Assembly: GCA_021785655.1 (NCBI GenBank)
Contig: JAJYET010000007.1
Location: 8,267 to 72,266, forward strand
Reading direction: 5' to 3'
DNA from: a bacterium
GTDB lineage: Bacteria > Chloroflexota > Dormibacteria > Aeolococcales > Bog-877
Length of the DNA: 64,000 nucleotides
In this document: positions 382-56,884 of the stretch, piece by piece
How the letters are laid out: each line of letters opens with the position of its first letter
Position numbering within the stretch: position 1 is the first letter of the stretch
Notes under the pieces: generated by a model
What the model saw: the letters and a program-made list of their open reading frames with translations, nothing else
Databases searched by the model: none
Told to the model about the DNA's origin: nothing
Translations under genes and position numbers: made by a program

Positions 382-1659
382 TCAATCTCGACCGCGGATC
401 CCCATCCCCTTTGAAGGCACCACGGCCACCCCTTCCCGTGGCGTTTCCCCGGAAGGTGGGATGGTCACTCGCTTCATCTGCCGCCACGCCGTGACCGCCG
501 CCGCCGCCAGGATCAGCGGGGTCAGTTTGATCGGAAGGTCGAGGTGCGGGCTCAGGTCCAGGAGAGCGGCGAGGTTCAGAGCCAACATCCACAGCGCCAG
601 CCCGGTGAGGGGGCGGCCCTGGGCGCGCAGCGCCAGGCCAGACCAGACGGCAGCGGGCGCGAGCAGCAGCAATCCCTGGGTGAGGTCGTGGGGAGCGATC
701 ACCAGCGACAGGCAGAGCGACGAGGTGAGGGCCCACCACCAATCCGACTCCGATCGGGGCGGCCTGCGCGCCCAGGCGAAGGCCTGCAGGGCTAGGCCCA
801 GGGGAATCATCAGGAGGCCGAGCGTGGACGCCAAGGAGCCCGGCCCCACCAGCCTCCAGAAGAATCCCAAGGCGGTGGCGTCGTTGGTGGGTGGGAAGCG
901 CTGGGCGAGGGTGTAAGTCTCCAGGTGGATCGCCTGGCGGAGGCCGGCTACCCCGAGGTCGAGGAACGTGCCGAGACCCAGCGCCAGCAGCGCCAGGGCG
1001 AACACCCGGACACGGCGGTTGCGCCACCGGGAAAGAGCCGGAACCGCAAGGCCCAAGAACAGGTCCGGCTTGAGGGCCAGGAAGAGGGCGGAGGTCGCCG
1101 CCCTCGGGGCCCAGCGCCGTGCCCCCGCCAGGGTCGCCGCCGACATCGCCAGGGCCGCGCCGAGCGGCCAGAGCAGGTCGAACTGGCCCTGCCCCAGTGC
1201 GATGTACGTCGGGTAGCTGGCGAGGGCGCCCAGTGCCAGGAGCCAGATCCCCGGGACTTGGGGGCGCTGGCGGACGATCCAGCACAAGCCGCCCGCGCAC
1301 CCTGCAAGCGCCACCGCATCCCAGCACCAGAAGGCATCTCGGAGCGGAAGATAGCTGAAGGGCAGGATGACCCAGGCCGCGATGGGTGGGTTCACGAAGG
1401 GGATCGCGAGGCTGCCTCCCCGGCCTCTAACCGTCGCCTCGAGCGCGTACTGGGTGGTCAGCGAGTAGAGGTCACGGGTCAGGGGGAAGCCGAAATGCGC
1501 CAGCCCTCGAGCGGCGAAGTAGAAGGCGCTGAAGTCGTTCGGCCACTGCTGCTGCCAACCTGTGGCCACCGCGGCGATCCAGGCCAGGAGCAACAGGCCC
1601 AGAAGCAATGCGGTCTGCTGAGACCGCCGAGCGGTCCACGCTCCGGTCCTCTGGCTCAC
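382..1659 (-). CDS. Polytopic membrane protein, GT87/DUF2029-like putative polyprenol-phosphate-sugar-dependent glycosyltransferase
   Basis: 425-aa ORF with a GTG start at 1659 and a hydrophobic multi-pass sequence. The loop motif WPNDFSAFYFAARGLAHFG resembles the D-x-x-[FY]-Y...G segment of PimE-type GT87 enzymes. Paralogous by eye to six other ORFs in the window. Confidence 0.55.
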   Translation of the reverse strand: MSQRTGAWTARRSQQTALLLGLLLLAWIAAVATGWQQQWPNDFSAFYFAARGLAHFGFPLTRDLYSLTTQYALEATVRGRGGSLAIPFVNPPIAAWVILPFSYLPLRDAFWCWDAVALAGCAGGLCWIVRQRPQVPGIWLLALGALASYPTYIALGQGQFDLLWPLGAALAMSAATLAGARRWAPRAATSALFLALKPDLFLGLAVPALSRWRNRRVRVFALALLALGLGTFLDLGVAGLRQAIHLETYTLAQRFPPTNDATALGFFWRLVGPGSLASTLGLLMIPLGLALQAFAWARRPPRSESDWWWALTSSLCLSLVIAPHDLTQGLLLLAPAAVWSGLALRAQGRPLTGLALWMLALNLAALLDLSPHLDLPIKLTPLILAAAAVTAWRQMKRVTIPPSGETPREGVAVVPSKGMGIRGRD

Positions 1660-1726
1660 GCTTTGCAGGGGTCCAATAGGGGGGGCCCAAGGGGTGGACG
1701 GTGGAGGCGCGCGGCCCTCAGCATCG

Positions 1727-1737
1727 CCCCCCCCCCC
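1727..1737. repeat. Homopolymeric C11 tract (G11 in the direction of the flanking genes)
   Basis: Read directly: gcatcg + 11 x c + ggatcc. Intergenic, between the 3-prime end of tRNA-Val (1780) and the start of the GT87-like gene (1659). Confidence 0.9.
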
Positions 1738-1779
1738 GGATCCGGCTGAGTCGCATCTTTCGGAGCCATGCCGACCGGG

Positions 1780-1851
1780 TGGGCGAAGCAGGTATCGAAC
1801 CTGCGACCTCCTCGTTGTAAGCGAGGCGCTCTACCACTGAGCTATTCGCCC
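1780..1851 (-). tRNA. tRNA-Val (anticodon UAC)
   Basis: The reverse complement folds as a 72-nt cloverleaf. Acceptor GGGCGAA/UUCGCCC; D arm GCUC-AGUGGUA-GAGC; anticodon arm CCUCG-CUUACAA-CGAGG; variable loop AGGUC; T arm GCAGG-UUCGAUA-CCUGC; discriminator A. CCA is not encoded (followed by CCC). Confidence 0.9.
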
Positions 1852-10353: not shown

Positions 10354-10583
10354 TCCCGAAGTCTACCAACTGACCGATGAGTTCCTCGTCGTGCCACCCA
10401 GCCCGCGCACGCGGACCTTTCCTAGATCGCTCCCGACTTGCGCCGGAGGCCGCAACCCGCGTTCGGCCTCTGCCGGTCACGCCCCAGTGACGCGATGCCG
10501 CCCTGGCCGTCGCATCCGGGTTGAAAAGCTGACCACCCCGTAACTCTGCGGGTCGGGCCAAGCCCTCACACTCTTACCAACTC

Positions 10584-11939
10584 TTGTCGGCCGAGGAGAA
10601 CCCCTTAGAGTTGTCGCCCACCGTTCAGAAGGGACCTGTGACGGAAGCCGTGCGCATGCCGACTTCTGAATGGGAGCTACAGCACCGCGCCCTGGTGGGC
10701 CTTCTCGCCATAGCGCTCTTCCTCTTGGGGCAGGCCGCGGTGTCTCAGCTGCGACTGCCATCCTGGGGTGCCATCCTCTTTCCGGTTCCATCCACCGTGG
10801 TTGCGGGCATGGCCCTCGCACCTTGGTCCTGGATCGCGCGGCTCAAGCAGCGCGCCCTGGGCCAGCGCGTGTCGCTCCTTGTGGGGCTGGTGATCATCGC
10901 CACCTCAGCGTCCATCGCGATCGTGGCGATTGCTTGGCCTCCGGGTGGATGGGATCAGCCCCTCACGATGGTCTGTGCGTCCAGAGATCTCCTCGCCGGA
11001 AATGACCCTTACGGCACCTTTGAGCCCCAGTGCGAGGCGGCACTCGGCTACTCCGGCACCGCGGCCACACCGCTTGAGTCTGGTCCATTCGCGAACTTCC
11101 ACCATTACCCCTCCACCCGCCAGGTGCGGGCTGTCCTGGCCGCCGACCAAATCGGGCACACTCACGCCGGGTTTCCCGCCTTCGGCTACCCACCGCTGGC
11201 GGCTGTGCTGCTCATCCCGGTGGCGTATCAGACCTGGCCGATCATTGACCTCTGGGTTGCTGGGCTCTGCGTCTTGCTGCTGACGCTCATGGCCTGGGGC
11301 TCTCCACGGCCCGGAGCTCTGGTTGTTGCCTGGCAGTTGGCCGGGCTGGCGCTGACATGGCACGCCTTTGGGTGGAACCCTGAGGAGGTCTCGTACCTAT
11401 TCCTGGCTTTGGCGTTCGCTCAAATCGATCGCATCCGGCTGAGTTCCCTGGCCTTGGCCGCAGCTGTGCTCAGCAACCCGATCTCCTGGCTCGCGGCCCC
11501 AATCTATATTGCGGCCACCCACCGCGCGGATTCATGGGGCAGGCGGCTTATCTGGGTCTTTGGGGGCTCAGCTGCAATCCTGATTCCCTGGATGCTTTGG
11601 GATCCTCAGCTGCCGGCACAGGTCTTCCGCTTCATCACGCTACCCGAGTTCCCCATTGGGGCCACGGTCGCGACCCTGGTGCCACTGCCTTCAAACCTGC
11701 GCCCCCTGTTTATGGCCCTCTTCCTTGCCGTGATCGCTGTGTGCACTACCGTCGCGTGGCGGTCTTCCGCCTGGAGGTGGTCCATGGTCGCGTTGGTGTT
11801 CCTGGCCTTCTTTGTCAGCTGGCGTGGGCCCGTGTATTACTACCTGGCCCCGCTCTGGCTGGCCCCAGCCGTCGCCCTAGGGTCTGCCAGGCTGCGGGCG
11901 AGGACGGCCGCGACACCTGTTGGCCTCTCCGCAGCCTGA
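10584..11939 (+). CDS. Polytopic membrane protein, GT87/DUF2029-like
   Basis: 451-aa hydrophobic ORF with loop motif ASRDLLAGNDPYG. The start is uncertain: TTG 10584 is the longest option and ATG 10656 is an alternative. A/T-ending codons are visibly more frequent than in flanking genes. Confidence 0.5.
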   Translation: MSAEENPLELSPTVQKGPVTEAVRMPTSEWELQHRALVGLLAIALFLLGQAAVSQLRLPSWGAILFPVPSTVVAGMALAPWSWIARLKQRALGQRVSLLVGLVIIATSASIAIVAIAWPPGGWDQPLTMVCASRDLLAGNDPYGTFEPQCEAALGYSGTAATPLESGPFANFHHYPSTRQVRAVLAADQIGHTHAGFPAFGYPPLAAVLLIPVAYQTWPIIDLWVAGLCVLLLTLMAWGSPRPGALVVAWQLAGLALTWHAFGWNPEEVSYLFLALAFAQIDRIRLSSLALAAAVLSNPISWLAAPIYIAATHRADSWGRRLIWVFGGSAAILIPWMLWDPQLPAQVFRFITLPEFPIGATVATLVPLPSNLRPLFMALFLAVIAVCTTVAWRSSAWRWSMVALVFLAFFVSWRGPVYYYLAPLWLAPAVALGSARLRARTAATPVGLSAA

Positions 11940-13635: not shown

Positions 13636-13718
13636 CGGCCACCAGCCAGGGATGTGGACCTACGAAAGCAGACAGGTGGCTAGGCTGGGCTCGTCGATGA
13701 TAGCCGAAGAGGCCAGAA

Positions 13719-13979
13719 ATGGCACCAACGACGAGAAAGAACACCGTCGAGTTCGAGGCTCAGGTGACAGCGCTGAAGGGCGACAAGACGGTGGCTGAGA
13801 CCGCGCAGACCTACAGCATCCATTCTACCATCGTCACCCAGTGGAAGGGGCGTCTCGAGAAGGCGGCGGCTCAGGGCTTCGAAGGCAAGGGGAGGGCGGG
13901 TGAGCCACCGGTCGATGTGGACGCTCTGTACTGGAAGATCGGCCAGATCGAGATGAAGAGAGATTTTTTTGTGCACTAG
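13719..13979 (+). mobile_element. IS3-family transposase orfA remnant (helix-turn-helix part only, no orfB)
   Basis: The 86-aa product (NTVEFEAQVTALKGDKTVAETAQTYSIHSTIVTQWKGRLEKAAAQGF...ALYWKIGQIEMKRDFF) matches the IS3/IS911-type OrfA pattern. It sits in a visibly lower-GC stretch, 13640-14140. No orfB-like frame follows. Confidence 0.6.
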
Positions 13980-14138
13980 TGTCGCCGGACTTCCGCAGTT
14001 GGACGCTTCGAGTGAGCATGGCTGGGGGCCGAGTCGAAGTGAAGAAGGGTATCTCGGGCGGCTTCCGCGGCTGATCGACATAGCTACAATAGGCTTTGCT
14101 AACGGCCAGTCTATCCGGTAGGTACCTGGGAAGATGTA

Positions 14139-14861: not shown

Positions 14862-14868
14862 CCGAATC

Positions 14869-26686: not shown

Positions 26687-26698
26687 GGCCAGGTCCCC

Positions 26699-29505: not shown

Positions 29506-29509
29506 GGGG

Positions 29510-30860: not shown

Positions 30861-30863
30861 GGC

Positions 30864-33409: not shown

Positions 33410-33432
33410 CTGGGACGTACTCCTCGGCTACT

Positions 33433-34659: not shown

Positions 34660-34714
34660 GCCGGCACCCCGAGCTTGAGGCGACCCACCGGACTTCCTTC
34701 CCTTGACCCTCCGC

Positions 34715-41283: not shown

Positions 41284-41354
41284 CCGTCCCGGACCTCCTC
41301 TGTGGCCACGGCTTTCGAACCCCTGGCGAGCGGACCCCAAGTCGCGGCTGGTGA

Positions 41355-45683: not shown

Positions 45684-46838
45684 CTACGGCTGGACCTCTT
45701 CCGGCACCGGCAGGCGCCCGGACGGCGCCCGCCGAGCGTCCAACTGGGGACCATCCTGGCGGCCATTCGCGGGGCCCGCGAGATCCGCAGGGGCCACAGC
45801 CGAGCGCACCAGGCTGGGCCAGCTGAAGTCCGCCACCCGCAGCCGCACCACCTCGATCGATGAGAGGGCCTCGGTGAGCACTCGGCGCTCCGCCTCCTGG
45901 ACAGCCGCGAAGTCCAGGCCACCGATCTCCAGCTGGGGGGCCATGGTCTTGAAGGGCGGAAACTCATAGGCGTCGGCGGTGTTGCTGAGCAGCTGCTCCA
46001 CCGCCTCCTCGCGGCCCACCCCCGCAGCCAGGGCGGGAGACCCGCGCTCGATGAGGAACAGCCGCCGCACCTGGACGGTCTGGCCCATCTCCGCCGGGAC
46101 CAGCTGCTGGACCATGTACTTGGGGGGTGGGATCAACGCCTGCACCAGGCTGTTCATGGCCATGATCGGCAGCGGCTTCTCTCCCAGCCACTTCCCCACC
46201 GACCGCCCGCTCCTGGAGTGCAGCCTGCTCTGCACCGAGAGGGCGGCCCTGCGATGCGCCGGGAGGCGGCTTGCCGCCACCGCCTTCAGGGTGTGGGCGC
46301 TGATGGTGAGCGGCTTGGGGAAGCGGCTGGCCGTCCCGTCCGGGCTGATGATGGTCATGTCGTCGGAGAGGAAGGATCCCCGGCACTCTCGGAGAAGCCG
46401 CAGGATGGTCGCGGTCTTGCCGGTGTCAGTCTTGGCCGAGAGCAGGATCCCCTGCCCGAAGAGCGAGACGCAGCCGGCGTGGAGGAGCATCCGCCCACGC
46501 CCGGCGATCACGAACCGCAGCAGCGGCTCGACGATGTTGGTGTAGAGGACATGTGGGGAGTGGGCCAGCAACGGGGTGGCCAGCACCCGCACCGGGGGCC
46601 CCAGCTCGACGTCGAAGTTGGCGGTCACCGCCCCCAGCCTCTCCCGGTAGACGTACGTGGGGAGGGCACGCCGGACCGGAGCGCCGGAGACCACGCGCCG
46701 GCGCTCGATCACCAGGTCGGGCTGATCCACCTCCGGGACGCGAAAGAGCTCGAGCTCGGGGAGTCGGACCGCGGAGCGGATCCGGGCCAGTCCGTCGATG
46801 TCGTAGCTGAGCCGGCGGGCTCTTCCAGAGTCGGTCAC
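45684..46838 (-). CDS. HPr-kinase-C-terminal-like P-loop protein (hypothetical kinase)
   Basis: 384 aa. LLHAGCVSLFGQGILLSAKTDTGKTATILRLL parallels the HprK pattern hG..V...G.GVLI.G.SG.GKS. GTG start has AGGAGGG at the end of gtrA. Confidence 0.4.
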   Translation of the reverse strand: MTDSGRARRLSYDIDGLARIRSAVRLPELELFRVPEVDQPDLVIERRRVVSGAPVRRALPTYVYRERLGAVTANFDVELGPPVRVLATPLLAHSPHVLYTNIVEPLLRFVIAGRGRMLLHAGCVSLFGQGILLSAKTDTGKTATILRLLRECRGSFLSDDMTIISPDGTASRFPKPLTISAHTLKAVAASRLPAHRRAALSVQSRLHSRSGRSVGKWLGEKPLPIMAMNSLVQALIPPPKYMVQQLVPAEMGQTVQVRRLFLIERGSPALAAGVGREEAVEQLLSNTADAYEFPPFKTMAPQLEIGGLDFAAVQEAERRVLTEALSSIEVVRLRVADFSWPSLVRSAVAPADLAGPANGRQDGPQLDARRAPSGRLPVPEEVQP

Positions 46839-46839
46839 A

Positions 46840-47382
46840 TCACCCTCCTGTTGAGACGGTCGGATCGGAGCGCGCCGGACGCCTCCAGATCCATCCGTCG
46901 GCGACCGCGAAGCGGAGCAACAGGAAGACGATGACGGCGATGAAGTTGCTCACCAGATAGTTGACGCCCAGCCCGCTGGTCAGCCCGAAGAGCACGGGCA
47001 GGCGCAGCGCCAGGGAGGTCGTGTTGAGTGCGTCGAAGACGAGGAACCGGACCGGAAGGGCTCGGGCGCCGGGGTCCAGAGCGGCCCGCCGGAAAACCCA
47101 GAGCTCGTTGATTATGAAGGTGGTGACGGTGGAGCCCTGGCTGGAGACCACCGCCGCCAGGAGGTAGTTCCAGTGGGCGAGCGAGACCAGCCCAGCCAGG
47201 ACCGCCTGGTTGACCGCCAACCCGGCGAGCCCCACCAGCCCAAACTGCAGCCCGCGCACCAGCCTCCCCTCCCCCCACCCGCGGACCCGCTCCAGGTGGG
47301 ATGGCGCCACGTATGACGCCGTGGGGCGGGCCGAAGTCCGCACCGGCCTCACCCCAGGCTCGGGGGCCGGCGGGCGGGCCAT
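46840..47382 (-). CDS. GtrA-family membrane protein (putative polyprenol-phosphate-sugar flippase)
   Basis: About 180 aa with 4 TM. The segment LVRGLQFGLVGLAGLAVNQAVL...FIINELWVFRR is the GtrA-like signature. ATG 47382 is chosen because the track start at 47505 overlaps the upstream GT2 gene. Confidence 0.75.
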   Translation of the reverse strand: MARPPAPEPGVRPVRTSARPTASYVAPSHLERVRGWGEGRLVRGLQFGLVGLAGLAVNQAVLAGLVSLAHWNYLLAAVVSSQGSTVTTFIINELWVFRRAALDPGARALPVRFLVFDALNTTSLALRLPVLFGLTSGLGVNYLVSNFIAVIVFLLLRFAVADGWIWRRPARSDPTVSTGG

Positions 47383-47423
47383 GGCCGCGATCCAGGTCAG
47401 CTCCTGCGGGAGCTCCTCGGCGC

Positions 47424-48944
47424 TCAAGGCGCCTCCACCGCCCGGTCCCCGCCGGGGGCCGCCTGGTCGGCCACCACCTCGGCCCCGGCCTCGAGCCGGC
47501 TGCACCAGGCGACGCAGGCATGGAGGTCACGCTCGGAGAACGGGCTGCGGCCGGTGCGTGCGACGGCGGCGATCCGCACCACCCTCCGGGTGCCGGCCAG
47601 CTGAGGGATCAGGATCACGCTGTAGCTGCCCACGTTGATCCGGGGCTGGCGCCGGCTGGAGGGAAGCTCGGTCAGCACCACCGGCCGCCCGCTGCGGGTC
47701 ACGTGGCTCACGACCTCGGCGGTGACCAGCTGCTGCACCCGGGGGGGGGCGGCCGCGGGGCGGGCGGCATCGATCCACCAGGCGAAGTCGGCGGAGAGGC
47801 GGCGCGCCAGCGCCTGCAGCGAGAGCTCGTCGGCCAGCGTCACCACGGGCACCGCGAGGCGGGACCGCCGACGCAGGTAGGAGACCATCGCCGAGCCCAG
47901 CAGCTGGGCGGCCAGCAGCGCCAGGATGGCCAGGACCACGGTGGCGAGATGGGCCTTGGCGGTGAGGATCGCGAAGCCCACGAGGCCGCCGGCCACGGCG
48001 ATGAGCCCCGCCACCCAGAGAAGCCTCTGGGCCCCCATCCCCATGCGCCAGAAGGCGCTGCGGAAGGTGAGGAGACCGTACACCGCCACGCTCACCAGAA
48101 GGCTGGTCGCCGCCGCCCCCAGCCAGGGAGCCGGTGGCCGCAGGGGCAGGTCGGTCAGCAGCGCGACCACCGACACGAACACCACCATCCCGGCCCCCGC
48201 AGACACCGCCACCTTGCCGAGGAGCGCCGCCAGCGGCACGTAGACCACAAGGGAGAGGACGTGCTTGCCGAAGAGGATCCCCTGGGAGAGGGTGGCCTTG
48301 CTCTCGCCGGCGTAGCGGGGAGCGAAGGTGAAGGGAACATCCCTGACCCGGATGCCCGGCAGGCAAACGAGGAGCTCGAGGAGGATCTTGAAGCCCACCG
48401 GGCGGAACTCCAGCCCGGCGATGCTGCGCTGACGCACGCAGAAGAAACCGCTCAGCGGGTCGGTGGTGCGACGCGCCTCGGAGAAGACCGCCCTCGCCAC
48501 CCAGGAGACGCTCTTGCTGACGGCCGTCCGGAAGCGGCCAGAGAGCCCGGCAGCGCTACCTCCGGGGGCGTAACGGGACGCCACCGCCAGGTCCGCGCCC
48601 GCCCTCACCGCCCGCAGCAGCTCGGGGATGACCTCGGGAGGGTGCTGCAGGTCCGCGTCCATGACACAGATCGCCTGCCCCCTGGCCAGACTGAGGCCGG
48701 TGGACACCGCCGCGCCCAGCCCGCGCGGCTCGTGGGCGTCCCTCTCGACCACCACCCAGCTGGGGTCGGAGGCGGCAATCTGCCGCAGGGCGGGCCTGGT
48801 GACCTCGTCCGTGCTGTCGTCCAGGATCAGGACCTCCGCGGCCAGCCCCGACAGCGCCTGGCCGAGCCGGCGGTGCAGCTCGGGGAGGGCGTCGGCCTCG
48901 TTGCGGGTCGGCACCACCACGCTTAGCTCGATCTGCCCCTCCAT
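47424..48944 (-). CDS. GT2 polyprenol-phosphate mannose/glucose synthase-like (DPM1/Ppm1/GtrB type) fused to a TM region and a C-terminal GAF-like domain
   Basis: Motifs LSVVVPTRNEADAL, LILDDSTDE, VMDADLQHPP, ASRY, DPLSGFF. These are followed by about 4 hydrophobic helices and a soluble tail of about 140 aa. Confidence 0.8.
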   Translation of the reverse strand: MEGQIELSVVVPTRNEADALPELHRRLGQALSGLAAEVLILDDSTDEVTRPALRQIAASDPSWVVVERDAHEPRGLGAAVSTGLSLARGQAICVMDADLQHPPEVIPELLRAVRAGADLAVASRYAPGGSAAGLSGRFRTAVSKSVSWVARAVFSEARRTTDPLSGFFCVRQRSIAGLEFRPVGFKILLELLVCLPGIRVRDVPFTFAPRYAGESKATLSQGILFGKHVLSLVVYVPLAALLGKVAVSAGAGMVVFVSVVALLTDLPLRPPAPWLGAAATSLLVSVAVYGLLTFRSAFWRMGMGAQRLLWVAGLIAVAGGLVGFAILTAKAHLATVVLAILALLAAQLLGSAMVSYLRRRSRLAVPVVTLADELSLQALARRLSADFAWWIDAARPAAAPPRVQQLVTAEVVSHVTRSGRPVVLTELPSSRRQPRINVGSYSVILIPQLAGTRRVVRIAAVARTGRSPFSERDLHACVAWCSRLEAGAEVVADQAAPGGDRAVEAP

Positions 48945-49299: not shown

Positions 49300-50442
49300 T
49301 CAGTCGACCGGCAGGGTGACCCGGACCTCGGTCCCCCGCCCCACCTGGGAGAGGACCTCGAGCTGGCCATGCTCCAGGTCGGCGCGCTCGCGCATGGAGA
49401 TGATCCCGAAGTGGGGCTCCCGGGCCATCTTCTGCTCGACGGCGGCCAGGTCGAAGCCCTCGCCGTCGTCTTTCACCACCGCGCTCACCCGGTTGGGCTG
49501 GAGGTTGATCAGCACCTCAAGGGTCCTGGCGTTGGCGTGCTTCCGGACGTTGACCAGCGCCTCCTTGACGATCCTGAAGAGCGCGCCCTCCGTTTCGGGA
49601 GGGAGCCGGCGCTCGGCTCCGATCACCGAGAGCCGGGCGTCCATTCCCTCCCGATCCTTGTACTCCGCCACCAGCCGACGCAGGGTCGGGATCACCCCCA
49701 GGTCGTCCAGGGTCATGGGGCGGAGGTCAAAAATAAGGTCCCGGGTCTCCTCCAGGACCCCCCTCACCAGATCCTTGAAGGTCTGGATCTCCACCTTGGC
49801 CCGCTCCGGCTCCCGGTCGACCAGCCGCTCCAGGATCTCCGCCCGCAGCACCAGGTTGGAGAGGGACTGGGCAGGGCCGTCGTGCATGTCGCGGGCGATC
49901 CGCATCCGCTCCTCCTCGATGATCTGGAAGACCTGGCGGGAGGCGGAGCGGTAGCGGGCCAGGCCCTCCTCGAGAGTGCCATCGGTGGCCGGGCGGTCGC
50001 CCAGCTGGTCGAGCGCCGCGCGCACCAAGAGGTGCCAGCGGCGAAGCTCCCGAGCCCGTGACCGGCACAGCAGGAGCCGGGCCCGGGCGAGGGCGGCCTC
50101 CTGCTGCAGCGCGTGGCAGCGGGTGATGGCCGCCTCGACCTCAGCGGCAGCGTAGCGCACGTGGTCCCGAAGGACGTGGCGGCGAACGATCTCGGCGTCC
50201 TCGATCCGTTCCTCGGTCTGGTCCAGGCCGGCGAGCAGCCGCATCACCTCCTCGTCGAGGGCGAGGAGCGAACCCTCTACCTGGGAGGTCTCCTGAAGGA
50301 GCGTCTGCTGGAGCTCTGCCAGCGCCCGGCTGGGTGGTGGGGAGGGGGCGGCGGCCACGGGGTAAGCGTACGCGGCCGGGCTGGGAGCGGAGCCGTGACC
50401 TCGCTGCCGCGAGTTGGCAACGGATGCAGGGGCGGGAACCAC
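49300..50442 (-). CDS. Cytoplasmic sensor histidine kinase, HisKA_3 (DegS/NarX-like) type
   Basis: No TM segment. A coiled-coil-like N-terminal half, an H-box RIARDMHDGPAQ, and a HATPase region ALFRIVKEALVNVRKHA...DDGEGF...GIISMRERA. No adjacent LuxR-type response regulator. The start is uncertain. Confidence 0.85.
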   Translation of the reverse strand: MVPAPASVANSRQRGHGSAPSPAAYAYPVAAAPSPPPSRALAELQQTLLQETSQVEGSLLALDEEVMRLLAGLDQTEERIEDAEIVRRHVLRDHVRYAAAEVEAAITRCHALQQEAALARARLLLCRSRARELRRWHLLVRAALDQLGDRPATDGTLEEGLARYRSASRQVFQIIEEERMRIARDMHDGPAQSLSNLVLRAEILERLVDREPERAKVEIQTFKDLVRGVLEETRDLIFDLRPMTLDDLGVIPTLRRLVAEYKDREGMDARLSVIGAERRLPPETEGALFRIVKEALVNVRKHANARTLEVLINLQPNRVSAVVKDDGEGFDLAAVEQKMAREPHFGIISMRERADLEHGQLEVLSQVGRGTEVRVTLPVD

Positions 50443-50461: not shown

Positions 50462-50496
50462 TGACCACCCGGCGCCGCAGTTGACCACCCGCCGCC
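50462..50496 (+). repeat. Two 15-nt direct repeats TGACCACCCG[G/C]CGCC, spaced 20 nt start to start
   Basis: 50462-50476 and 50482-50496 differ at a single position. They lie in the 40-nt divergent gap between the histidine kinase and the GT-C-like gene, and overlap a 7-codon mini-ORF (ATG 50461) and the candidate TTG start at 50481. Confidence 0.6.
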
Positions 50497-52022
50497 TGAC
50501 GATCCCGACCTTCGTGGCGCTGACGGGTCTACTGTCAGGAATGCTGGCCTCCCGCCCCCAGGTGACCGACCCGGACTTCTGGTGGCACCTGCGCAACGGC
50601 CAGACCCTGCTGCGCACCGGGCGGCTGATCGCCACCAACCCGTACGCCTTCATCTCCGCTGACCACCACTGGGTGATGCAGGAGTGGCTGAGCGAGGTGT
50701 GGATGGCGGCGGCAGCGGCCGCCGGAGGGCGCCCGGCGGTGGTGGCCGGCTACTGGCTCATCACCCTTCTAATGTGGATCGCGGTCTGGATGCGGTCCCG
50801 GATCCTGGCCCCGGTCAGCGGCCTCACCGTGGGGGTCGGGCTGCTGTTCGCCGCGCTCACCGCCTACCCCATCCTCGGGCCCAGGCCCCAGATGGCCACC
50901 TACTGCCTGCTCGCCTTCGCCCTCCTGCTCGCCGAGTTGCAGCTGCGCCGAGGCGGTTTGGCGGCCTTCCTGCTCGGGCCCCTCTTCCTGCTCTGGACCG
51001 ATCTCGAGGCGGGCTTCATCATCGGCCTGATCTTCCTGGCCACGATCCTGGTGGCGGAGGGGGGCGCCATCCTGGCCGGCCGCAGGACCAAGGAGGAGGC
51101 CGGGCGCATCTGGCGCCTGGCCGGAGGCAGCGCCCTGGGGCTCGGGGCCTGCCTCATCAACCCCAACGGGGCGGCGATCATCGCCTACCCCTTCCAGACC
51201 CAGTTCAGCTCGGCCCAGCAGGCACTGATCGTGGAGTGGCAGAGCCCGGACTTCCACAACCCGCTCCTCATCCCGCTGCTGCTCTTCGTCCTATCGCTGC
51301 TCTATCTGGTGGTCCGCCACGGCCGCCTTCCCCTGCGCGACCTGGCGGTTCTCGGACTCGCCCTCCTGGTGACCCTCCAGTCCGTTCGCAACCTGGTCAT
51401 CCTGGTGGTGGCCGGCGCCCCGTGGTGGATCGTCCTGGCGGACCAGCTGCGGCAGCGGCTGGCCCGGCGCTGGCGGCTCCGGCTGCGTCCGACCCAGCCG
51501 CGCCTGGCGTCACTGTTGGAGGTGGTCTTCCTCCTGGGTCTGCTCGGCGCGCTGCTCGGGCAGGCGGCAGTGGAGTCCACCCCGGCGCTGGCCTCCAGCA
51601 CCTACCGAGGGACCTTCCCCGTGTGTGCGGCGGCCTGGCTCAGGAGGGGTCCATCGGGGCTCAAGATCTTCAACGTCTACGGGGATGGGGGCTTTCTCGC
51701 CTACGAGCTGCCCCAGGACAAGGTGTACATCTTCGGCGACGCGGCCCTCATGGGCTCCCGGGCCCTGCTGCGATACGCCTCGATCGTGGATCTGGCCCCG
51801 GGGTGGTTACAGCGGCTGGACTCCAGCCCAAGCCAGCTGGTCCTGTACCAGCGCGGGCAGCCGTTCACCGACGCCCTGCAGCGCGAGAGTGGGTGGACCG
51901 TGGTGTACCGGGACCCCCTCTTCGAGGCCCTGGTGCGCACGGGGTCCCCGCTCCAGCGGGAGCTGACGCCCCAGCCCACGGCGGACGGGTGGCAGCGGAT
52001 GGGCCTTCCATCCTGCTCCTGA
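50481..52022 (+). CDS. Polytopic membrane protein, GT-C-like (family uncertain)
   Basis: Loop motif TDPDFWWHLRNGQTLLRTGRLIATNPYAF. A later EWQSPDFHNP motif is shared with ORF 55427..56884. The start is uncertain: the track start 50334 overlaps the kinase gene, so TTG 50481 is proposed. Confidence 0.45.
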   Translation: MTTRRLTIPTFVALTGLLSGMLASRPQVTDPDFWWHLRNGQTLLRTGRLIATNPYAFISADHHWVMQEWLSEVWMAAAAAAGGRPAVVAGYWLITLLMWIAVWMRSRILAPVSGLTVGVGLLFAALTAYPILGPRPQMATYCLLAFALLLAELQLRRGGLAAFLLGPLFLLWTDLEAGFIIGLIFLATILVAEGGAILAGRRTKEEAGRIWRLAGGSALGLGACLINPNGAAIIAYPFQTQFSSAQQALIVEWQSPDFHNPLLIPLLLFVLSLLYLVVRHGRLPLRDLAVLGLALLVTLQSVRNLVILVVAGAPWWIVLADQLRQRLARRWRLRLRPTQPRLASLLEVVFLLGLLGALLGQAAVESTPALASSTYRGTFPVCAAAWLRRGPSGLKIFNVYGDGGFLAYELPQDKVYIFGDAALMGSRALLRYASIVDLAPGWLQRLDSSPSQLVLYQRGQPFTDALQRESGWTVVYRDPLFEALVRTGSPLQRELTPQPTADGWQRMGLPSCS

Positions 52023-52028: not shown

Positions 52029-53750
52029 TCACGCGCCGGGCTGGAGCCAGATGGCGGCCCCGTCCACCAGCTCCGGGGACTGGCCCAGGATCCCTCGAAG
52101 CTCCCTTTCGTCCGCCGCGAACTGCGCTGAGGGCATGAGGACCAGCGCCCTGACCCCGAGCCGCCGGAGCTCGAGCCGGACGGCTGCGGCCGACACCCCG
52201 ACCGGGTGGGCGTCGCCCGAGCTGAGGGCGGTCGCCAGGTTCGCCAGCGGCGAGGGGCTGAGATTGTCGGTGAGCACCCCGCCCGGGCCGGGCCGGAGGA
52301 GATACCCGAAGGGCTGGGAGTAGCGGAAGCCCTGCTCGGCCTGCCAGTACATCGCCAGCCCGTGGTTCTCCCGGGTGGTGATGGGGATGGTGAGCACCGA
52401 GGCCCCGGCCGGCAGCCCCCCGAGGGCGGCCGAGCTGAGGACCCGGGGCGTGTACACGGGGAAGCCGGCGATGCCGGCCATCAGCCCGGAGCTGGGGAGG
52501 AGGGGTAGGAGGGCCACCCCCAGGATCAGCGCCCGGGACCGGAGTTCGAAACGCTCCATGACCCGGTCCCAGCCGGCGGCCAGAAGGCACGCCACCCCAG
52601 CCACCACGAAGATAGTGAGGCGGCTGGGGACCGCCTTGCCCAAGAGGGGGAGATGCTCGAAGAGCAGCCAGGGAAGCGGGACCCTGGTCACCACCCCGGC
52701 CACGTGCAGCTGTCCCCCCAGGGAGAGCAGGCCAGCCACCCCGGCCAGCCCGGCTCCCAGGCGGGCCAGGGGCGTGCCCCGCAAACGCCAGGCGGCCAGG
52801 GCCGCCATGACGAGGAGCGGGAAGCCGAGGTAGGCGTCGGTCTCGAGCAGCTCCCCGGTGTAGCGCAGGCTGAGGGCCCCAGCCGGCCCGATGCCCATCA
52901 GCTGGGCGTAGCCCGGCACCACCCACTCCAACAAGTCCACCACGTTGGCGGCGGGCGAAACCACGGTGGGACGGCTGAGCGGCACCCCGGACGTGAGCTG
53001 GGAGATGACCGGGTAGGCCATGAGGGCTCCGAAGACAGCGAGGGCGCCGGCCACCACCGGCCAGAGGCGGCGGAGCGGCGGCAGTCCCCGGCGAAGGATC
53101 CCGCGGGAGTTCAGGACCAGGAGGAGGACCGCCATCAGCAGGGTGGTGGCCAGCAGCTCCTTGCTCACCCAGTACTGCAGGACGGCCCATCCGCCCAGCA
53201 CCATCCCCCAGCGGACTGGGTGCCGCCCGTCCCGGGCGGCGCGCCAGGCGCGCTCCCCGGCCCACCAGCCCAGCGGGAGGGTCGCGGTCGAGACCCAGGT
53301 TAGGTGGCCCGCGGCCAGCTCGGAGAGGGCGAAGGGGCTGAAGCCGAAGAGGAGCCCCCCCAGCCAGGCCGAGCTGGCGTGGCGGACGTGGGGGCGCAGC
53401 TGCCAGGCCATGGCGGCCGCGGCCGCGGCCACCATCAGGACGAAGACAAGGTCCATGGCCGCCGCCGCTGGGAGCACTCGGAAGACCGGCCAGGCCAGCA
53501 GGGCCAGCGCGAGGTCGGCGTTGTTCCAGAGCAGGCTCACCGTGCTCGGATGGGTGGCGATGGAGGTCTGGAACGGGTTCAGCCCGTGCGAGATGGCGTG
53601 CGGGAACCAGTTGAGGAACCAGAGGTGCATCGCCGTGTCGGCGCCGTACCCCAGGAGCCGGGGCTGGCTCCCGAGCCAGAGGGGCAGGGTGAGGAGGAGC
53701 GCCGCCAGGAGGTAGCTAAGGGACATCGCCGGCCCCCAGCGGGGTCGCAC
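52029..53750 (-). CDS. Polytopic membrane protein, GT-C-like (family uncertain)
   Basis: 573-aa hydrophobic ORF with first-loop motif GADTAMHLWFLNWFPHAISHGLNPFQ. Alternative ATG start at 53726 (MSLSYLL...). Confidence 0.45.
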   Translation of the reverse strand: MRPRWGPAMSLSYLLAALLLTLPLWLGSQPRLLGYGADTAMHLWFLNWFPHAISHGLNPFQTSIATHPSTVSLLWNNADLALALLAWPVFRVLPAAAAMDLVFVLMVAAAAAAMAWQLRPHVRHASSAWLGGLLFGFSPFALSELAAGHLTWVSTATLPLGWWAGERAWRAARDGRHPVRWGMVLGGWAVLQYWVSKELLATTLLMAVLLLVLNSRGILRRGLPPLRRLWPVVAGALAVFGALMAYPVISQLTSGVPLSRPTVVSPAANVVDLLEWVVPGYAQLMGIGPAGALSLRYTGELLETDAYLGFPLLVMAALAAWRLRGTPLARLGAGLAGVAGLLSLGGQLHVAGVVTRVPLPWLLFEHLPLLGKAVPSRLTIFVVAGVACLLAAGWDRVMERFELRSRALILGVALLPLLPSSGLMAGIAGFPVYTPRVLSSAALGGLPAGASVLTIPITTRENHGLAMYWQAEQGFRYSQPFGYLLRPGPGGVLTDNLSPSPLANLATALSSGDAHPVGVSAAAVRLELRRLGVRALVLMPSAQFAADERELRGILGQSPELVDGAAIWLQPGA

Positions 53751-53920
53751 GGCAGTGAGAGACCGCAGTGCAGACCTGCTGGCTGAAGGGCGGGCGACCA
53801 GCTTGGGGAAGATCGGCGCGGCCTCCTCGGTGGGTGGATGCTGGCTGGCGGCGCGGAGAGTCTAGGGTGCTGACGGGCATCCCCGGGTGACGTTGCGGTC
53901 GCGGTCCCCGCAGGGGATCG

Positions 53921-54385
53921 TCAGCGGGAGGGGGACAACTCCTCGGGTGGGCGCATCCGCCAGGCGGTGGTGAGGAGCATCACGAGAATGTCGAGGTGGA
54001 CGAAGGTGCACCAGAGGCAGATGGCCTTCAGCTCCACCAGCTCCACGAAGACCAGGTAGAAGACGGACAGAAGCCCGAGGCAGGCCCAGGCGAAGTGAGC
54101 CCGGCGCAGCTCCAACCGCCGGGGCCGGAGCACCTGGGCCAGGGCCAGCGCCAGGGCCACCAGGAAGAAGGCCAGCCCGGGTACGGTGATCGGGGTGGAG
54201 GTGCCCGGCACCACCGAGAACTGGCTGGTCACCACCTTGTCGCAGTTGACTATCCCGGTGGAGACGCAGACCGGGGCCACCTTCGCGTAATGGACCACGG
54301 TGAGGTAGCTGGCATCGCCGATCCCGAGGAGGGCGAGGGCCGCGAGCCATATCGCTCCCCCCCTCCCCGGCGCGGGCTCCTCCAC
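53921..54385 (-). CDS. Vitamin K epoxide reductase (VKOR) family membrane oxidoreductase
   Basis: 154 aa with loop Cys pair CVSTGIVNC and active-site CLWC in a TM helix. GTG start has AAGGAGG 5 nt upstream. Confidence 0.8.
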   Translation of the reverse strand: MEEPAPGRGGAIWLAALALLGIGDASYLTVVHYAKVAPVCVSTGIVNCDKVVTSQFSVVPGTSTPITVPGLAFFLVALALALAQVLRPRRLELRRAHFAWACLGLLSVFYLVFVELVELKAICLWCTFVHLDILVMLLTTAWRMRPPEELSPSR

Positions 54386-54450
54386 CCTCTCCTCCTTCGG
54401 GGCTCCGGCGCCGGCCGGCGGGAGGACGCGACGACGGGCCCTGGCGCTGC

Positions 54451-55377
54451 TCAGAGACCCGCCTCCAGCTGCCGCACCAGCGCACGGTCGCAGACCGACC
54501 CCGGGCGGTTGCCGGTGATGGAGCAGATGGCCGCGGTGTCGTAGTTGACCCCGCCGAGGATCATCTTGGCCGGAGTCGAGCCGGTCTTGGCGAGCAGGCT
54601 GGCGATCTGCTGCCAGTCGTAGCCCTCCAGACCGGGAGGGCCGGGCGAGGTGCTCTCCGAGCCCACCTGGGCGATCCTGCCGCCGAAGTCGACGAAGGGG
54701 AACCCGCTCTGGCCGACCTGGGTGAACAGGGTGGCCTCCTGGGCTGTGAGGTGCTGGAAGGGCGCGTACCCGCTGCTGGACTTCTTGTCGGGAACGTTGC
54801 TGTACAGCTCCCGGGCCACGAAGGTGAGGTACGGGCTGCTGTAGGTGACGCCATGGGCGAAGGTGAAGGTGGCGATGTTGGTGCCCGCGGGGTCGGTGGC
54901 CGAGCCACGGATGATCTTCAGGTTGTGGAAGGTCCCGAACTGGCTCAGCGCTCCGATCAGCGACCAGCGCTGCAGAGCGCAGTAGGGGCAGTACTCGGCT
55001 CCCACATACAGGACCTCGGGCTTCCCCTGGCTCCTGAGGGTGGTCGGGGAGGGCACGGCAGCGGGCGGGAAGTTGACGTCTCCCTTGCCCACCTTGTTGA
55101 GGTTGGCGGTGGGGATGTGGGTCACCGCGCTGACCACCTGGGCCGGTGCGGGGAGAACCTGGGTGTCCTGAGCTGTGGACGGCCCTGAGAGGTCGAGGAC
55201 CAAGATCACCACCACGAAGACCGCGACCACCGCCCCGATGGCGGCTAACAGTCCCCAGGGGCGGCGGCTGGAACTCTTCTGCCGACGGTATTGGGGGCTG
55301 CGGGAGGATCCCCTCCCGTTGCCCCCCCCGGCGGCCCCCCGCGCCTGCCGGCGCTCCGCCATCGACTTCTTGGACAT
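54451..55377 (-). CDS. DUF929 domain protein, membrane-anchored thioredoxin-like with CPYC
   Basis: Basic N-terminus and a single TM. GKPEVLYVGAEYCPYCALQRWSLIGALSQFGTF, FPFVDFGG and AAICSITGNRPGSVC match the DUF929 pattern as I recall it. Confidence 0.7.
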   Translation of the reverse strand: MSKKSMAERRQARGAAGGGNGRGSSRSPQYRRQKSSSRRPWGLLAAIGAVVAVFVVVILVLDLSGPSTAQDTQVLPAPAQVVSAVTHIPTANLNKVGKGDVNFPPAAVPSPTTLRSQGKPEVLYVGAEYCPYCALQRWSLIGALSQFGTFHNLKIIRGSATDPAGTNIATFTFAHGVTYSSPYLTFVARELYSNVPDKKSSSGYAPFQHLTAQEATLFTQVGQSGFPFVDFGGRIAQVGSESTSPGPPGLEGYDWQQIASLLAKTGSTPAKMILGGVNYDTAAICSITGNRPGSVCDRALVRQLEAGL

Positions 55378-55426
55378 CTGTACCTCCGGCGCGAACCCGA
55401 CCGGCCGCCAGGATACGGGCCCGACC

Positions 55427-56884
55427 TTAGAGCCCGCTCGGAGGAGGGGTCAGGACTACAACCAGCCGATCACGATACCTGGTCCGCCAGCCCTCGGCAC
55501 GGAGGAAAGCCACCCCGGGGTTGGTCGGCGGAAGGACCGCCAGCCGTACCCCCGCCGCGGAGAGCAGGTTCAGGGTCCCCGAGGTCAGCTGGGAGAGCCG
55601 GTAGCAGGCCGCCAGCCGGCCCTCCCCCGCCACCACCTGGTCGGTGACGCACATCAGGCGGCGGCCCGCCGGAAAGTCCGCCGCGAGGTAGTCGCCCAGC
55701 TCCGGGGTGGAGTACCAAACCCCGCCCGCGGTCCTAAGGAAGGCGACGGCCGAGGGCGGCGGCGCCCCCGCGGCGGCCCCGCGGCCAAGGCGGGCTGCGG
55801 AAACTCCGAGACCGGCGGCGGCGAGGAGCGGCAGGGCGAGCGCGAGGGCAGCGGCTCGGGACGCCGTCCCCCGCCCCAGCGGAAGCGGGGCGGCGAGCAG
55901 GAGAGCTGGCACCTGAATGCCGATCACGGCCACCAGAAGTGGGAGGTAGAAGGACCAGAGCAGTGAGGCCGCAGCGGCCAGAAGGCCGATGAGGGCGCCG
56001 CCCGAGCCCAGCCGGCGGCCCGCCAGCAGGTAGGCGGCCAGGAGCAGGAGGGCCGCCAGCTCCACCACTCGCATCGACCAGGGGTGGAAGTTGGGGCTGG
56101 ACCAGAGGGCGAGGAGCGGGTGCTCCCCGCCCTGCCCCAGGCTGAGGGGCAGGGCGGAGTAGATGCGCGGTCCGAGTGGGTTGACCATCACCGCGACCGC
56201 GGCGGCCGGGGCCACCAGCCAGGGGAGCCGATCCCCTCGGGGCTGCGGGCCGAACCGGTCGGCGGCGGCGATGAGCAGAAGGGCCGGCGGCACCAGCACC
56301 GCGGCGGACTGCAGATTGGACCAGAGCAGGCAGAGCCCGACCAGCGCGACCAGGGCCCAGCGCCGCCCGCGCCGGACCTCCGCGAGGAGGAGCAGGGCCG
56401 TGGCCCCCAGCAGAGCCAGCCAGTAGGTGGAGTTCGTGGCCGGCAGCTGGGCAAGCGCCGCCAGCGCCACGCCACCTCCCAGCGTCACGGCCAGGGGATG
56501 GGCCTTGGCCCGCCACCCGGAGACGGCGAGCACAAGACCGAAGGCTGAGCCCAGCAGCACCGTGAGCCCCACCAGGCCGGCAGCTCCTGCCAGGTGGTGG
56601 AAGCCCAGGGAGATCAGCGCCGCCAGCCAGGAGCGGAGGTCGAGCTCACCCGAGGGCGCCGCCATGAAAGAAGCCCCAGCCCGCCGCAGGACCTCCTGGC
56701 CCATGGCCAGCTGCAGGTAGTCCGGGGCGGCAGGCTGGCGCCAGCCCGCGGCGCCCCCCCCCAGGGTGAGAGCGGCCGCGGCTCCCAGCCTCCAGCTCCC
56801 GGTGCCGCAGCCGGCCAGCAGCAGAACGGCCCGGCGCTGGACCGACACCAAGAGCGGATGGGGGGCTGGAAGGCGGTCGGTCAA
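55427..56884 (-). CDS. Polytopic membrane protein, GT-C-like; paralog of 50481..52022
   Basis: Hydrophobic multi-pass sequence with the shared motif LWSSPNFHPW. TTG 56884 overlaps the stop of the upstream GT2 gene (TTGA). The track extension to 57139 lies inside that gene. The start is uncertain. Confidence 0.45.
   Translation of the reverse strand: MTDRLPAPHPLLVSVQRRAVLLLAGCGTGSWRLGAAAALTLGGGAAGWRQPAAPDYLQLAMGQEVLRRAGASFMAAPSGELDLRSWLAALISLGFHHLAGAAGLVGLTVLLGSAFGLVLAVSGWRAKAHPLAVTLGGGVALAALAQLPATNSTYWLALLGATALLLLAEVRRGRRWALVALVGLCLLWSNLQSAAVLVPPALLLIAAADRFGPQPRGDRLPWLVAPAAAVAVMVNPLGPRIYSALPLSLGQGGEHPLLALWSSPNFHPWSMRVVELAALLLLAAYLLAGRRLGSGGALIGLLAAAASLLWSFYLPLLVAVIGIQVPALLLAAPLPLGRGTASRAAALALALPLLAAAGLGVSAARLGRGAAAGAPPPSAVAFLRTAGGVWYSTPELGDYLAADFPAGRRLMCVTDQVVAGEGRLAACYRLSQLTSGTLNLLSAAGVRLAVLPPTNPGVAFLRAEGWRTRYRDRLVVVLTPPPSGL

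Follow-up and report, generated by a model that had tools for sequence, protein, structure and literature searches.

Eleven GT-C or GT-C-like membrane protein genes of four families in a 64-kb segment of Candidatus Dormibacterota

A chromosomal segment from a Candidatus Dormibacterota MAG (64 kb, the whole stretch of DNA that was analysed, hereafter the window) carries eleven genes for GT-C or GT-C-like polytopic membrane proteins interspersed among housekeeping genes. These belong to four families—GT87-like (seven genes, A–G), PMT_2 (H), an uncatalogued family (I and K) and one related to DUF6311 (J). We favour, with a probability of about three in four, a genuine set of eleven genes from four families that is fed by GT2 polyprenyl-phosphate-sugar synthases and acts on the outer face of the membrane. 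For donors, flipping, acceptors and biological role we infer that three GT2 enzymes (Dol-P-Man-synthase/ArnC/GtrB type) would charge polyprenyl phosphate with sugar on the cytoplasmic side, the charged lipid would be flipped across the membrane (one module has a GtrA gene), and the GT-C enzymes would use an acidic residue of the first extracytoplasmic loop to pass the sugar to a glycopolymer, glycolipid or protein of the envelope. The first-pass annotation had called all eleven GT-C-like, and this holds, with evidence of graded strength: scores above the Pfam GT87 threshold (A, E, F and G), a PMT_2 match (H), a predicted fold (I and J) and profile–profile links only (B, C, D and K).

Seven proteins had been likened to GT87 mannosyltransferases; four of them exceed the Pfam GT87 cut-off of 25 bits: A (425 aa; 382–1659, − strand; 36.8 bits), E (20078–21331, − strand; 40.8 bits), F (21547–22677, + strand; 27.8 bits) and G (22723–24171, − strand; 52.8 bits). 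The other three are B (10584–11939, + strand), C (11920–13635, + strand) and D (15792–17228, + strand; 21.8 bits), divergent GT87-like GT-C candidates that match no curated Pfam or NCBIfam family above threshold (B has no match of any kind in either) and join the group only by profile–profile comparison (hhalign 84–98%). The seven fall into three sub-lineages, A/E/F/G, B/C and D. E and G are paralogous (BLAST 3e-31), as is F to E (1e-11) and G (9e-20), and A aligned with the E/F/G profile at 97% (hhalign). C is a distant paralogue of B (hhalign 97.6%; 83% for C against E/F/G). The B/C profile aligned with the GT87-like profile at 97.8% (E 8e-13), and the D profile with B/C at 97.3% (E 2e-11) and with the GT87-like profile at 84% (E 7e-6); D also aligned locally with J (hhalign 93.5%, 130 columns). 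The B family is small (only 41 representative clusters among 1.84e9 proteins) and has a conserved loop Cys pair; 3 of 37 members match GT87, and conserved residues of B include D124, G139, P142 and Y143, D124 being invariant in B/C. Only seven homologues of C were found. Relatives were compared at their secA loci (labelled L0xx; SecA 56–93% identical to that of the window), nearly all of which are labelled as Dormibacterota/Dormibacteria MAGs, a few having another or no taxon name; these labels support the placement of the window in Candidatus Dormibacterota. G keeps its place beside secA across the clade: its orthologues (46–82% identity) lie upstream of secA in L003–L010, L036 and L042, always preceded by an ABC ATPase and an FtsX-type permease.

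The seven had also been said to share a first-loop motif, an acidic residue followed by G-x-x-P-Y. The quoted peptides are present letter for letter (SDFRVFYGAAKAMAAGQDPYS in G, DIDVFWFTQRATARLLHGQNPYG in D and SDFQTFLAASHRLMAGLPLYG in F) and the loop is homologous, though it varies: the place of the Asp is taken by Ala in E and its L042 orthologue, G-x-x-P-Y is interrupted by an insertion in A (whose Asp is kept in NDFSAFYFAA) and F reads G-L-P-L-Y. The loop of C is TDEAALLQAAGTLVLHGRNPYG. A, D, F and G all carry the Asp, as do most orthologues of G. A similar Asp…N-P-Y/F loop occurs in J (D30 nearly invariant) and I (D30 nearly invariant, D32 invariant), so the loop is not GT87-specific. PDB sequence searches gave no PimE match, just a weak alignment with PIG-M (E 0.07).

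Each of the three GT2 genes shares its gene string with at least one GT-C gene, in line with the first-pass annotation. GT2 no. 1 (14139–14861, + strand; Pfam Glycos_transf_2), a small polyprenyl-phosphate-hexose-synthase-like enzyme with best NCBIfam matches to AglJ (7e-24), Dol-P-hexose transferase (5e-16) and PpgS (9e-14), lies between C and D; a SAM methyltransferase gene (14707–15795, + strand; Pfam Methyltransf_23, 6e-22) separates it from D. The triplet of GT2, methyltransferase and GT-C recurs in L086, there with an I-like GT-C. GT2 no. 2 (47424–48944, − strand; Pfam Glycos_transf_2, 7e-23), an ArnC/PgfS/GtrB-like candidate polyprenyl-phosphate glycosyl synthase (NCBIfam PgfS 1e-14, ArnC 4e-14, AglJ 3e-11), opens the string GT2–GtrA–X–H (X being one further gene), which includes a GtrA-family small membrane protein (46840–47505, − strand; Pfam GtrA_DPMS_TM, 2.8e-16), a putative flippase component for lipid-linked sugar, and ends with H (44041–45669, − strand). 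H is the PMT_2-like (ArnT/PMT-like) protein previously recognized (Pfam PMT_2 55.3 bits, PMT 31.3 bits; loop-1 SDEAVY). GT2 no. 3 (56881–57720, − strand), whose best PDB relatives are DPMS (5mlz, 2e-18), ArnC (1e-13) and GtrB (4e-10), lies upstream of K and overlaps its start by 4 bp. None of the three reaches the curated cut-off of an NCBIfam equivalog; they resemble polyprenyl-phosphate-sugar synthases and, with the GtrA gene, would form donor-synthase/GT-C modules.

To our knowledge, characterised GT87 members such as PimE are PPM-dependent mannosyltransferases. Together with the four genes above the GT87 threshold and the closeness of GT2 no. 3 to Dol-P-Man synthase among solved structures, this favours an Actinobacteria-like mannolipid/lipomannan pathway, in which the GT87-like proteins would act as alpha-mannosyltransferases that depend on polyprenyl-phosphate mannose and build a mannose-rich lipoglycan of the PIM/LM type; the first-pass annotation had likewise supposed a probably mannose-rich product. 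We consider such a pathway unlikely, at perhaps one chance in a few: GT87 scores are low (28–53 bits) and three of the seven miss the threshold, Pfam scans of the window found no PimA, PimB or PI-synthase gene, the GT2 proteins score similarly against hexose, GalNAc and Ara4FN synthases (all below cut-offs), and sugar specificity is not predictable at such sequence distance.

I (50481–52022, + strand) represents an uncatalogued family with a GT-C fold: neither I nor 43 members of its family have a Pfam or NCBIfam match, and among its 197 homologues (E ≤ 0.001) all organism-named ones are Dormibacterota. Its AF2 model (pLDDT 92.8, pTM 0.91) retrieved only GT-C proteins among the best 35 Foldseek matches in the PDB (STT3, DPY19, PglB, ArnT and others; STT3 1.5e-8, TM 0.5–0.6). 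K (55427–56884, − strand) is a remote paralogue of I, to which BLAST is blind (E 0.39; hhalign 98.9%, E 1e-17, 417 columns), and would thereby be GT-C as well; the earlier pairing of the two through W-[QS]-S-P-[DN]-F-H (EWQSPDFH in I, LWSSPNFH in K) thus gains profile support. J (52029–53726, − strand) has no Pfam match itself, some of its homologues matching PF19830 or PTPS_related, and the best 13 Foldseek matches of its AF2 model (pLDDT 89.5) are all GT-C (AglB, PglB, STT3, AftD and AftA). The TM values for these predicted models (0.41–0.60) are moderate, which fits a common fold and not near kinship; PDB sequence and profile searches with I, J, G, H and family profiles gave nothing significant.

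The string WecG–GT2–K–DUF929–VKOR–J is headed by a WecG/TagA-family glycosyltransferase gene (57624–58382, − strand; Pfam Glyco_tran_WecG, 8e-53; NCBIfam superfamily match above cut-off, TarA 2e-32) and includes genes for a DUF929 protein (54451–55377, − strand; Pfam DUF929, 5e-21), a conserved neighbour of K with the same position in L083, and a VKOR homologue (53948–54307, − strand, partial coordinates from tblastn; 59% identity to the L083 VKOR, E 2e-29). L083 has the order HisKA_3 kinase–I–VKOR–DUF929–K-like–GT2–WecG (K-like gene 41% identical to K). The WecG/TagA–GT2–K module with I nearby is complete in L083 and partly kept in more distant Dormibacterota, and the WecG–GT2 pair also occurs in L012, L016, L022, L034, L069 and L084. 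A core pathway for wall glycopolymer may be where I acts. WecG/TagA acts on PP-linked intermediates, and K shares its string, kept in L083. With STT3, AglB and PglB as top Foldseek matches of I, this would suit I and K as oligosaccharyltransferase- or ligase-like enzymes that transfer a whole, pre-assembled glycan (en bloc) from polyprenyl diphosphate to protein or peptidoglycan, with no single-sugar addition; an initiating transferase not seen here would begin the glycan and WecG/TagA would lengthen it. However, I and K lack a WWDxG-type motif (their sole WW is in the N-terminal DPDFWWH), the Foldseek scores of I against the monophosphate-donor enzymes DPY19, ArnT, ALG12 and AftA are almost as good, and the GT2 adjoining K resembles monophosphate-sugar synthases. 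En bloc transfer is, in our judgement, about as improbable as the mannolipid pathway.

A further reading, somewhat less probable again, is that a sizeable fraction of the eleven are not active glycosyltransferases: they would be paralogues that have decayed or taken on regulation, scaffolds, or polytopic proteins of another kind with a mere resemblance to GT-C. The loop-1 Asp is missing from E, and K has neither E68 nor E252, two acidic residues that never vary in I, nor a conserved D30; on the favoured reading too, E, K or both may have no activity or act in another manner. No curated family matches B, C or D above threshold, and a D-like gene in L007 looks split. Nevertheless, the ORFs of all eleven are long, unbroken and codon-biased, orthologues of E and K are conserved (78% identity in L042 and 41% in L083, respectively), and the profile links span >200 columns.

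All eleven multi-pass hydrophobic ORFs reported earlier are present and are real genes as judged by codon bias and hydrophobic segments (7–12 in each protein). GC3 exceeds GC2 in every one (0.72–0.93 versus 0.53–0.60), the pattern expected for real genes in DNA of 70% GC. For G, I, K and J the longest ORF extends beyond the likely start, and start-adjusted coordinates are given here; those of G, I and K agree with the first-pass annotation. NCBI and ENA gene calls, made independently, include those of the eleven that lie within the loci retrieved, and L042 orthologues of window genes are 47–85% identical. That the swarm is an artefact of spurious hydrophobic ORFs or a chimeric MAG contig is very improbable, for although 70% GC yields many long false ORFs (146 of ≥150 aa in all, two listed ones, ~53862–54485 and ~41355–43109, being in the wrong frame), codon-position GC is as above, independent assemblies at NCBI and ENA repeat the gene order, as does the MAG of the relative L042, and every family has homologues.

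The paralogue density had been called exceptional. With an identical filter for window and relatives (open frame ≥330 aa, ≥7 hydrophobic segments, codon bias), 12 polytopic genes passed in the 64-kb window, against 10 in 568 kb from 31 distant Dormibacterota secA loci; eight of those 10 were scanned and just one was a recognisable GT-C. The density is therefore exceptional locally and not phylum-typical, but the close relative L042 is equally rich around secA. No description of such GT-C density was found in the searchable literature. The block B–C–GT2–methyltransferase–D lies within the secA–prfB interval, and GC and GC3 drop at 10.5–17.2 kb of the window. Among relatives, the number of GT-C genes in this interval ranges from 0 to 3 and their family changes, which suggests strain-level diversification of surface glycans. 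Since one uncultured soil member of this unstudied phylum has eleven GT-C or GT-C-like genes from four families, one of them uncatalogued, the phylum probably has an elaborate and variable sugar coat.

Among known systems, the best structural matches of the I and J models are STT3/AglB/PglB (GT66) and the C-mannosyltransferase DPY19 (probability 1.0, 509–708 alignment columns). The window proteins differ in sequence (9–14% identity, no WWDxG), in conserved motifs (DPDFWWHL, HEWLSE and EWxSP[DN]FH) and in a much smaller C-terminal periplasmic domain. Several J homologues carry DUF6311 (PF19830) or PTPS_related (PF10131) domains, and J has the same D-x-x-x-H-L-W loop and a similar overall size, although J and most of its Dormibacterota relatives reach neither model. 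A, E, F and G pass the threshold of the GT87 family (PF09594; mycobacterial PimE, MptC-type) and share its polytopic GT-C build, in which the first extracytoplasmic loop has an Asp ahead of G-x-x-P-Y; B, C and D are related at profile level, outside the curated family. The low scores, the non-actinobacterial host and the missing Asp of E set the window proteins apart. In PimE, Y62 hydrogen-bonds D58 (PMC12041525); if the loops align, Y62 would correspond to Phe in the GT87-like proteins of the window. The Gtr, ArnC–ArnT and DPMS–PMT systems combine a GT2 synthase, a small flippase and a GT-C transferase. The window strings are not phage-borne, include extra genes (methyltransferase, a 384-aa protein and WecG), have a GtrA gene in just one module and draw their GT-C partners from families other than GtrC/ArnT. 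They share with these systems the adjacent, co-oriented arrangement (GT2–GtrA–X–H, GT2–methyltransferase–D and GT2–K) and GT2 proteins that are closest to DPMS, ArnC, GtrB, AglJ and PpgS.

Because the window has a GC content of 70%, long false ORFs are abundant (146 ORFs of ≥150 amino acids), and genes were called by codon-position GC. All eleven candidate membrane proteins (here A–K, in window order) had a GC3 of 0.72–0.93 against a GC2 of 0.53–0.60, and the first-pass annotation was correct in describing them as multi-pass hydrophobic ORFs, given 7–12 hydrophobic segments per protein and the verbatim presence of the peptides that it quoted. A–K are also called in an NCBI metagenome-assembled genome (MAG; GCA_027402005.1, contig DAHZGQ010000007.1) and in ENA contigs (SecA and LipA exact matches), and an artefact or chimeric contig as the source of the swarm was rejected. 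Loci with SecA 56–93% identical belonged nearly all to MAGs labelled Candidatus Dormibacterota/Dormibacteria. Since the neighbours are ordinary chromosomal genes (lipA, 2-oxoacid dehydrogenase E1/E2, ftsEX, prfB and secA), the candidates do not form one island—they are several glycosylation modules scattered among housekeeping genes. Other neighbours encode an ABC/FtsX-type exporter, a HisKA_3 kinase, the ATP synthase operon and large fn3/Ig-like surface proteins. The window extends ~3.7 kb beyond the end of the NCBI contig and therefore derives from a near-identical assembly; the next 7 kb to the left of A contained no GT-C gene.

Four of the seven genes that had been grouped by a loop motif compared with GT87 enzymes passed the Pfam GT87 gathering threshold (PF09594; 25 bits): A (382–1659, − strand; 36.8 bits), E (20078–21331, −; 40.8 bits), F (21547–22677, +; 27.8 bits) and G (22723–24171, −; 52.8 bits). 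D (15792–17228, +) stayed under it (21.8 bits), and B (10584–11939, +) and C (11920–13635, +) had no match in Pfam. BLAST among the eleven proteins clearly linked E, F and G (1e-11 to 3e-31) and weakly A, and found no link between I and K, between B and C, or from D to the others; these were connected only through profiles. In hhalign comparisons, the B/C profile aligned with the GT87-like profile at 97.8% probability (E 8e-13), D with B/C at 97.3% (E 2e-11), D with the GT87-like profile at 84% (E 7e-6) and A with E/F/G at 97%; singly, 3 of 37 B/C-family members matched GT87. These profile alignments (84–98%) point to kinship of B, C and D with GT87, and A–G probably constitute one superfamily with three deep branches, one of which is GT87 in the curated sense. 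The earlier grouping of the seven is thus sustained at superfamily level, but not at the Pfam threshold. B belongs to a small family (41 representative clusters in 1.84 billion) with two conserved loop cysteines; for C, seven homologues were found. NCBIfam gave no matches for A, B, C, D, E, G, I, J or K and one weak match for F, below the cut-off (20.7 versus 150 bits). Sequence and profile searches of the PDB with I, J, G, H and the profiles A1–A4 returned nothing significant.

The seven genes were also said to share a first-loop motif in the region of a catalytic Asp. In PimE, the first juxtamembrane helix carries the catalytic D58 at its tip; ALG6, ArnT and PglB have their catalytic Asp in the equivalent position (PMC12041525). 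In our alignments, the loop Asp is invariant in B/C (D124), along with G139, P142 and Y143, and is found in A, D, F, G and most G orthologues. The homologous loop was therefore recovered with its Asp in A, B, C, D, F and G, but E and its orthologue in L042 (a related locus with SecA 93% identical) carry Ala at this position, and the loop is not restricted to the seven. As J (D30 ... G-L-N-P-F) and I (D-P-D ... T-N-P-Y) have comparable loops, the motif marks the first extracytoplasmic loop in GT-C enzymes at large. The one link of the loop to the PDB was a weak alignment with PIG-M (DIDYFVF...GKSPY, E 0.07).

I (50481–52022, +), J (52029–53726, −) and K (55427–56884, −) had no Pfam match. The I family, with 197 homologues found (E ≤ 0.001), recurs among MAGs of Dormibacterota and goes unrecognized by every curated library: each homologue with a named organism is a 'hypothetical protein' from Dormibacterota, none has a Pfam domain, and 43 members scanned singly against Pfam yielded zero matches even at E 0.05. 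For the AlphaFold model of I, built with the homologue alignment (pLDDT 92.8, pTM 0.91), the best 35 Foldseek matches in the PDB were all GT-C enzymes (STT3, at 1.5e-8, DPY19, AglB, PglB, AftA, ArnT, ALG12, ALG9, AftD, Emb and AftB; query-normalized TM 0.35–0.60). The best 13 matches of the J model (pLDDT 89.5) were likewise all GT-C (AglB, PglB, STT3, AftD and AftA; TM 0.37–0.54). As judged from these predicted models, I and J carry a GT-C fold. The predicted likeness to the GT66 oligosaccharyltransferases (STT3/PglB/AglB) is one of fold only; the sequences of I, J and K have no WWDxG motif and no Pfam STT3 match. J homologues are mostly from Dormibacterota; 2 of 41 J relatives match PTPS_related and approximately six have a precomputed PF19830 (DUF6311) assignment, J itself being without a match.

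Invariant or near-invariant positions of the I family include D30-P-D32-F-W-W-H-L directly after TM1, W64, E68, E72, R135, Q137, R303 and E252-W-x-S-P-[DN]-F-H. K aligned with the I-family profile over 417 columns (98.9%, E 1e-17; hhalign), in agreement with the earlier proposal that I and K are mutual paralogues sharing W-[QS]-S-P-[DN]-F-H. The K branch (the orthologue in the related locus L083 is 41% identical) retains W-S-x-[DN]-F-H and has lost E68, E252 and D30, and K is therefore regarded only as a putative enzyme. A HisKA_3 histidine kinase gene (49300–50442, −) lies just upstream of I; the two genes diverge in the window, as they do in L083 and L085, and are separated in L084 by a small methyltransferase-like gene. 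This position hints at envelope-stress regulation of I.

Three GT2 genes accompany the GT-C-like genes; originally noted as sitting next to at least one of these, each shares a gene string with one. The first (14139–14861) had AglJ, Dol-P-hexose transferase and PpgS as best NCBIfam matches and belongs to the string C–(small ORF)–GT2–methyltransferase–D (SAM methyltransferase, 14707–15795, +). The second (47424–48944; best NCBIfam matches PgfS, ArnC and AglJ) belongs to the string GT2–GtrA–X–H, and the third (56881–57720), which overlaps the start of K by 4 bp, to the string WecG/TagA–GT2–K–DUF929–VKOR–J. The closest solved relatives of the third are the Pyrococcus furiosus Dol-P-Man synthase (2e-18), followed by ArnC and GtrB. 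The NCBIfam matches of all three fall under the equivalog cut-offs, and we consider these genes candidate polyprenyl-phosphate-sugar synthases for which the sub-cut-off matches do not establish the donor sugar, mannose included. In such modules, a polyprenyl-phosphate-sugar synthase would act together with a flippase and with a GT-C transferase working outside the membrane. A triplet of GT2, Methyltransf_23 and GT-C genes also occurs in the related locus L086, there with an I-like GT-C gene, which argues for modular pairing.

In agreement with the earlier mention of one PMT_2-like protein, H (44041–45669, −) passes the Pfam thresholds for both PMT_2 (55.3 bits; threshold 26.1) and PMT (31.3 bits; threshold 22.7), and has the acidic D-E pair of the first loop in SDEAVY after TM1. 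It lies on one strand with the second GT2 gene and gtrA (46840–47505), an adjacency of GtrA, GT2 and GT-C as in a Gtr-type module. X, between GtrA and H, is a protein of 384 amino acids (45684–46838, −) that had no Pfam match and a faint HprK-like kinase similarity (E ~2e-3). Directly downstream of H, a phosphoesterase-like reading frame (~42704–44040, −; IKHVFVIVQEGHSFDNYFGT) is hidden under longer overlapping ORFs of other frames. Also downstream of H are genes for large proteins that are secreted or anchored and contain fn3, purple-acid-phosphatase-N and Ig-like domains (38032–43109, −), one with a C-terminal hydrophobic anchor; these are possible glycosylation substrates.

In L083, where I is 56% identical, the order is Tad pilus–kinase–I–VKOR–DUF929–K-like–GT2–WecG, with H, J and the inserted surface-protein block missing; L084 and L085 contain I plus a tandem paralogue. 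The VKOR homologue of the window (~53948–54307, −; 59% to the L083 gene) is the true gene at a position where ORF 53862–54485, in a different frame, was rejected. Together with DUF929 inside the WecG–GT2–K...J string, it suggests a disulfide system outside the cytoplasm. The Tad/Flp pilus locus (28318–35869, −), which looks complete, has two genes each for T2SSE ATPases and T2SSF, plus DUF192, a response-regulator–ParA fusion and RcpC/CpaB; it directly adjoins the kinase–I pair in L083 and L084, with ~13 kb of extra genes inserted between them in the window.

The interval between secA and prfB is a variable slot that holds 0, 1 or 3 GT-C genes, of changing family, among related MAGs. It has none in L004 and L010, a single gene in five loci (D-like in L003 and L007, GT87-like in L005, J-like in L006 and B-like in L009), and three together with a GT2 and a methyltransferase gene in the window and L042. 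In L036, a locus that stops short of prfB, secA is closely followed downstream by a J-like gene; the D-like gene of L007 (12766–14183) is seemingly split into two overlapping frames (possibly a pseudogene or an assembly error). In the window, GC and GC3 of the slot (10533–17228) are below those of the surroundings. An ABC ATPase and an 835-amino-acid FtsX-type permease (24179–27493, −) always precede the G orthologue and secA (L003–L009, L036 and L042), and this pair is a possible exporter associated with the GT87 product.

The first-pass annotation considered the paralogue density exceptional. A generic polytopic filter retained 12 genes in the 64-kb window versus 10 in 568 kb of distant loci; of these 10, the eight scanned were one PMT_2 protein and otherwise GGDEF-EAL, MFS, FtsX and DUF4386 proteins. 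In the distant Dormibacterota loci fetched (SecA ~56–68%), our family HMMs found no GT-C gene around secA, and the polytopic gene downstream of secA there, considered as a GT-C candidate, was rejected as a GGDEF-EAL protein. The clade with SecA ~75% identical has one to three GT-C genes around secA, always including the G orthologue. The density is therefore a local excess over distant loci, but not unique, as the window and L042 alike have six GT-C genes within ~10 kb either side of secA.

Dormibacterota are abundant in soils and permafrost, and we know of no reported pure culture. Literature searches combining Dormibacterota with glycosyltransferase, GT87, GT-C or lipoglycan retrieved nothing relevant, and a Chloroflexota reclassification paper gives glycosyltransferase counts for other classes only. 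The dense, partly lineage-specific set of lipid-linked-sugar transferases in the window provides gene targets for the surface of Dormibacterota cells, and the I/K family and the B/C and D sub-lineages are candidate new CAZy/Pfam GT-C families. We tentatively propose, with a probability of roughly 30%, that I and K are an uncatalogued GT-C family forming, with WecG/TagA and the Dol-P-Man synthase-like GT2, a core envelope-glycopolymer pathway, and that strains swap different GT-C families, each accompanied by a donor synthase of its own, in the slot between secA and prfB. If true, an uncultured soil phylum would have a mechanism resembling serotype conversion. The variable slot offers a test case for the diversification of surface glycans, in which phages or predators may be the driving force. 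What is new here is the phylum, the local density, the I/K, B/C and D families outside curated libraries, and the variable slot; the enzymes and the logic of pairing a donor synthase with a GT-C transferase have well-known counterparts in Actinobacteria, Enterobacteria, archaea and eukaryotes, and do not amount to a new kind of system.
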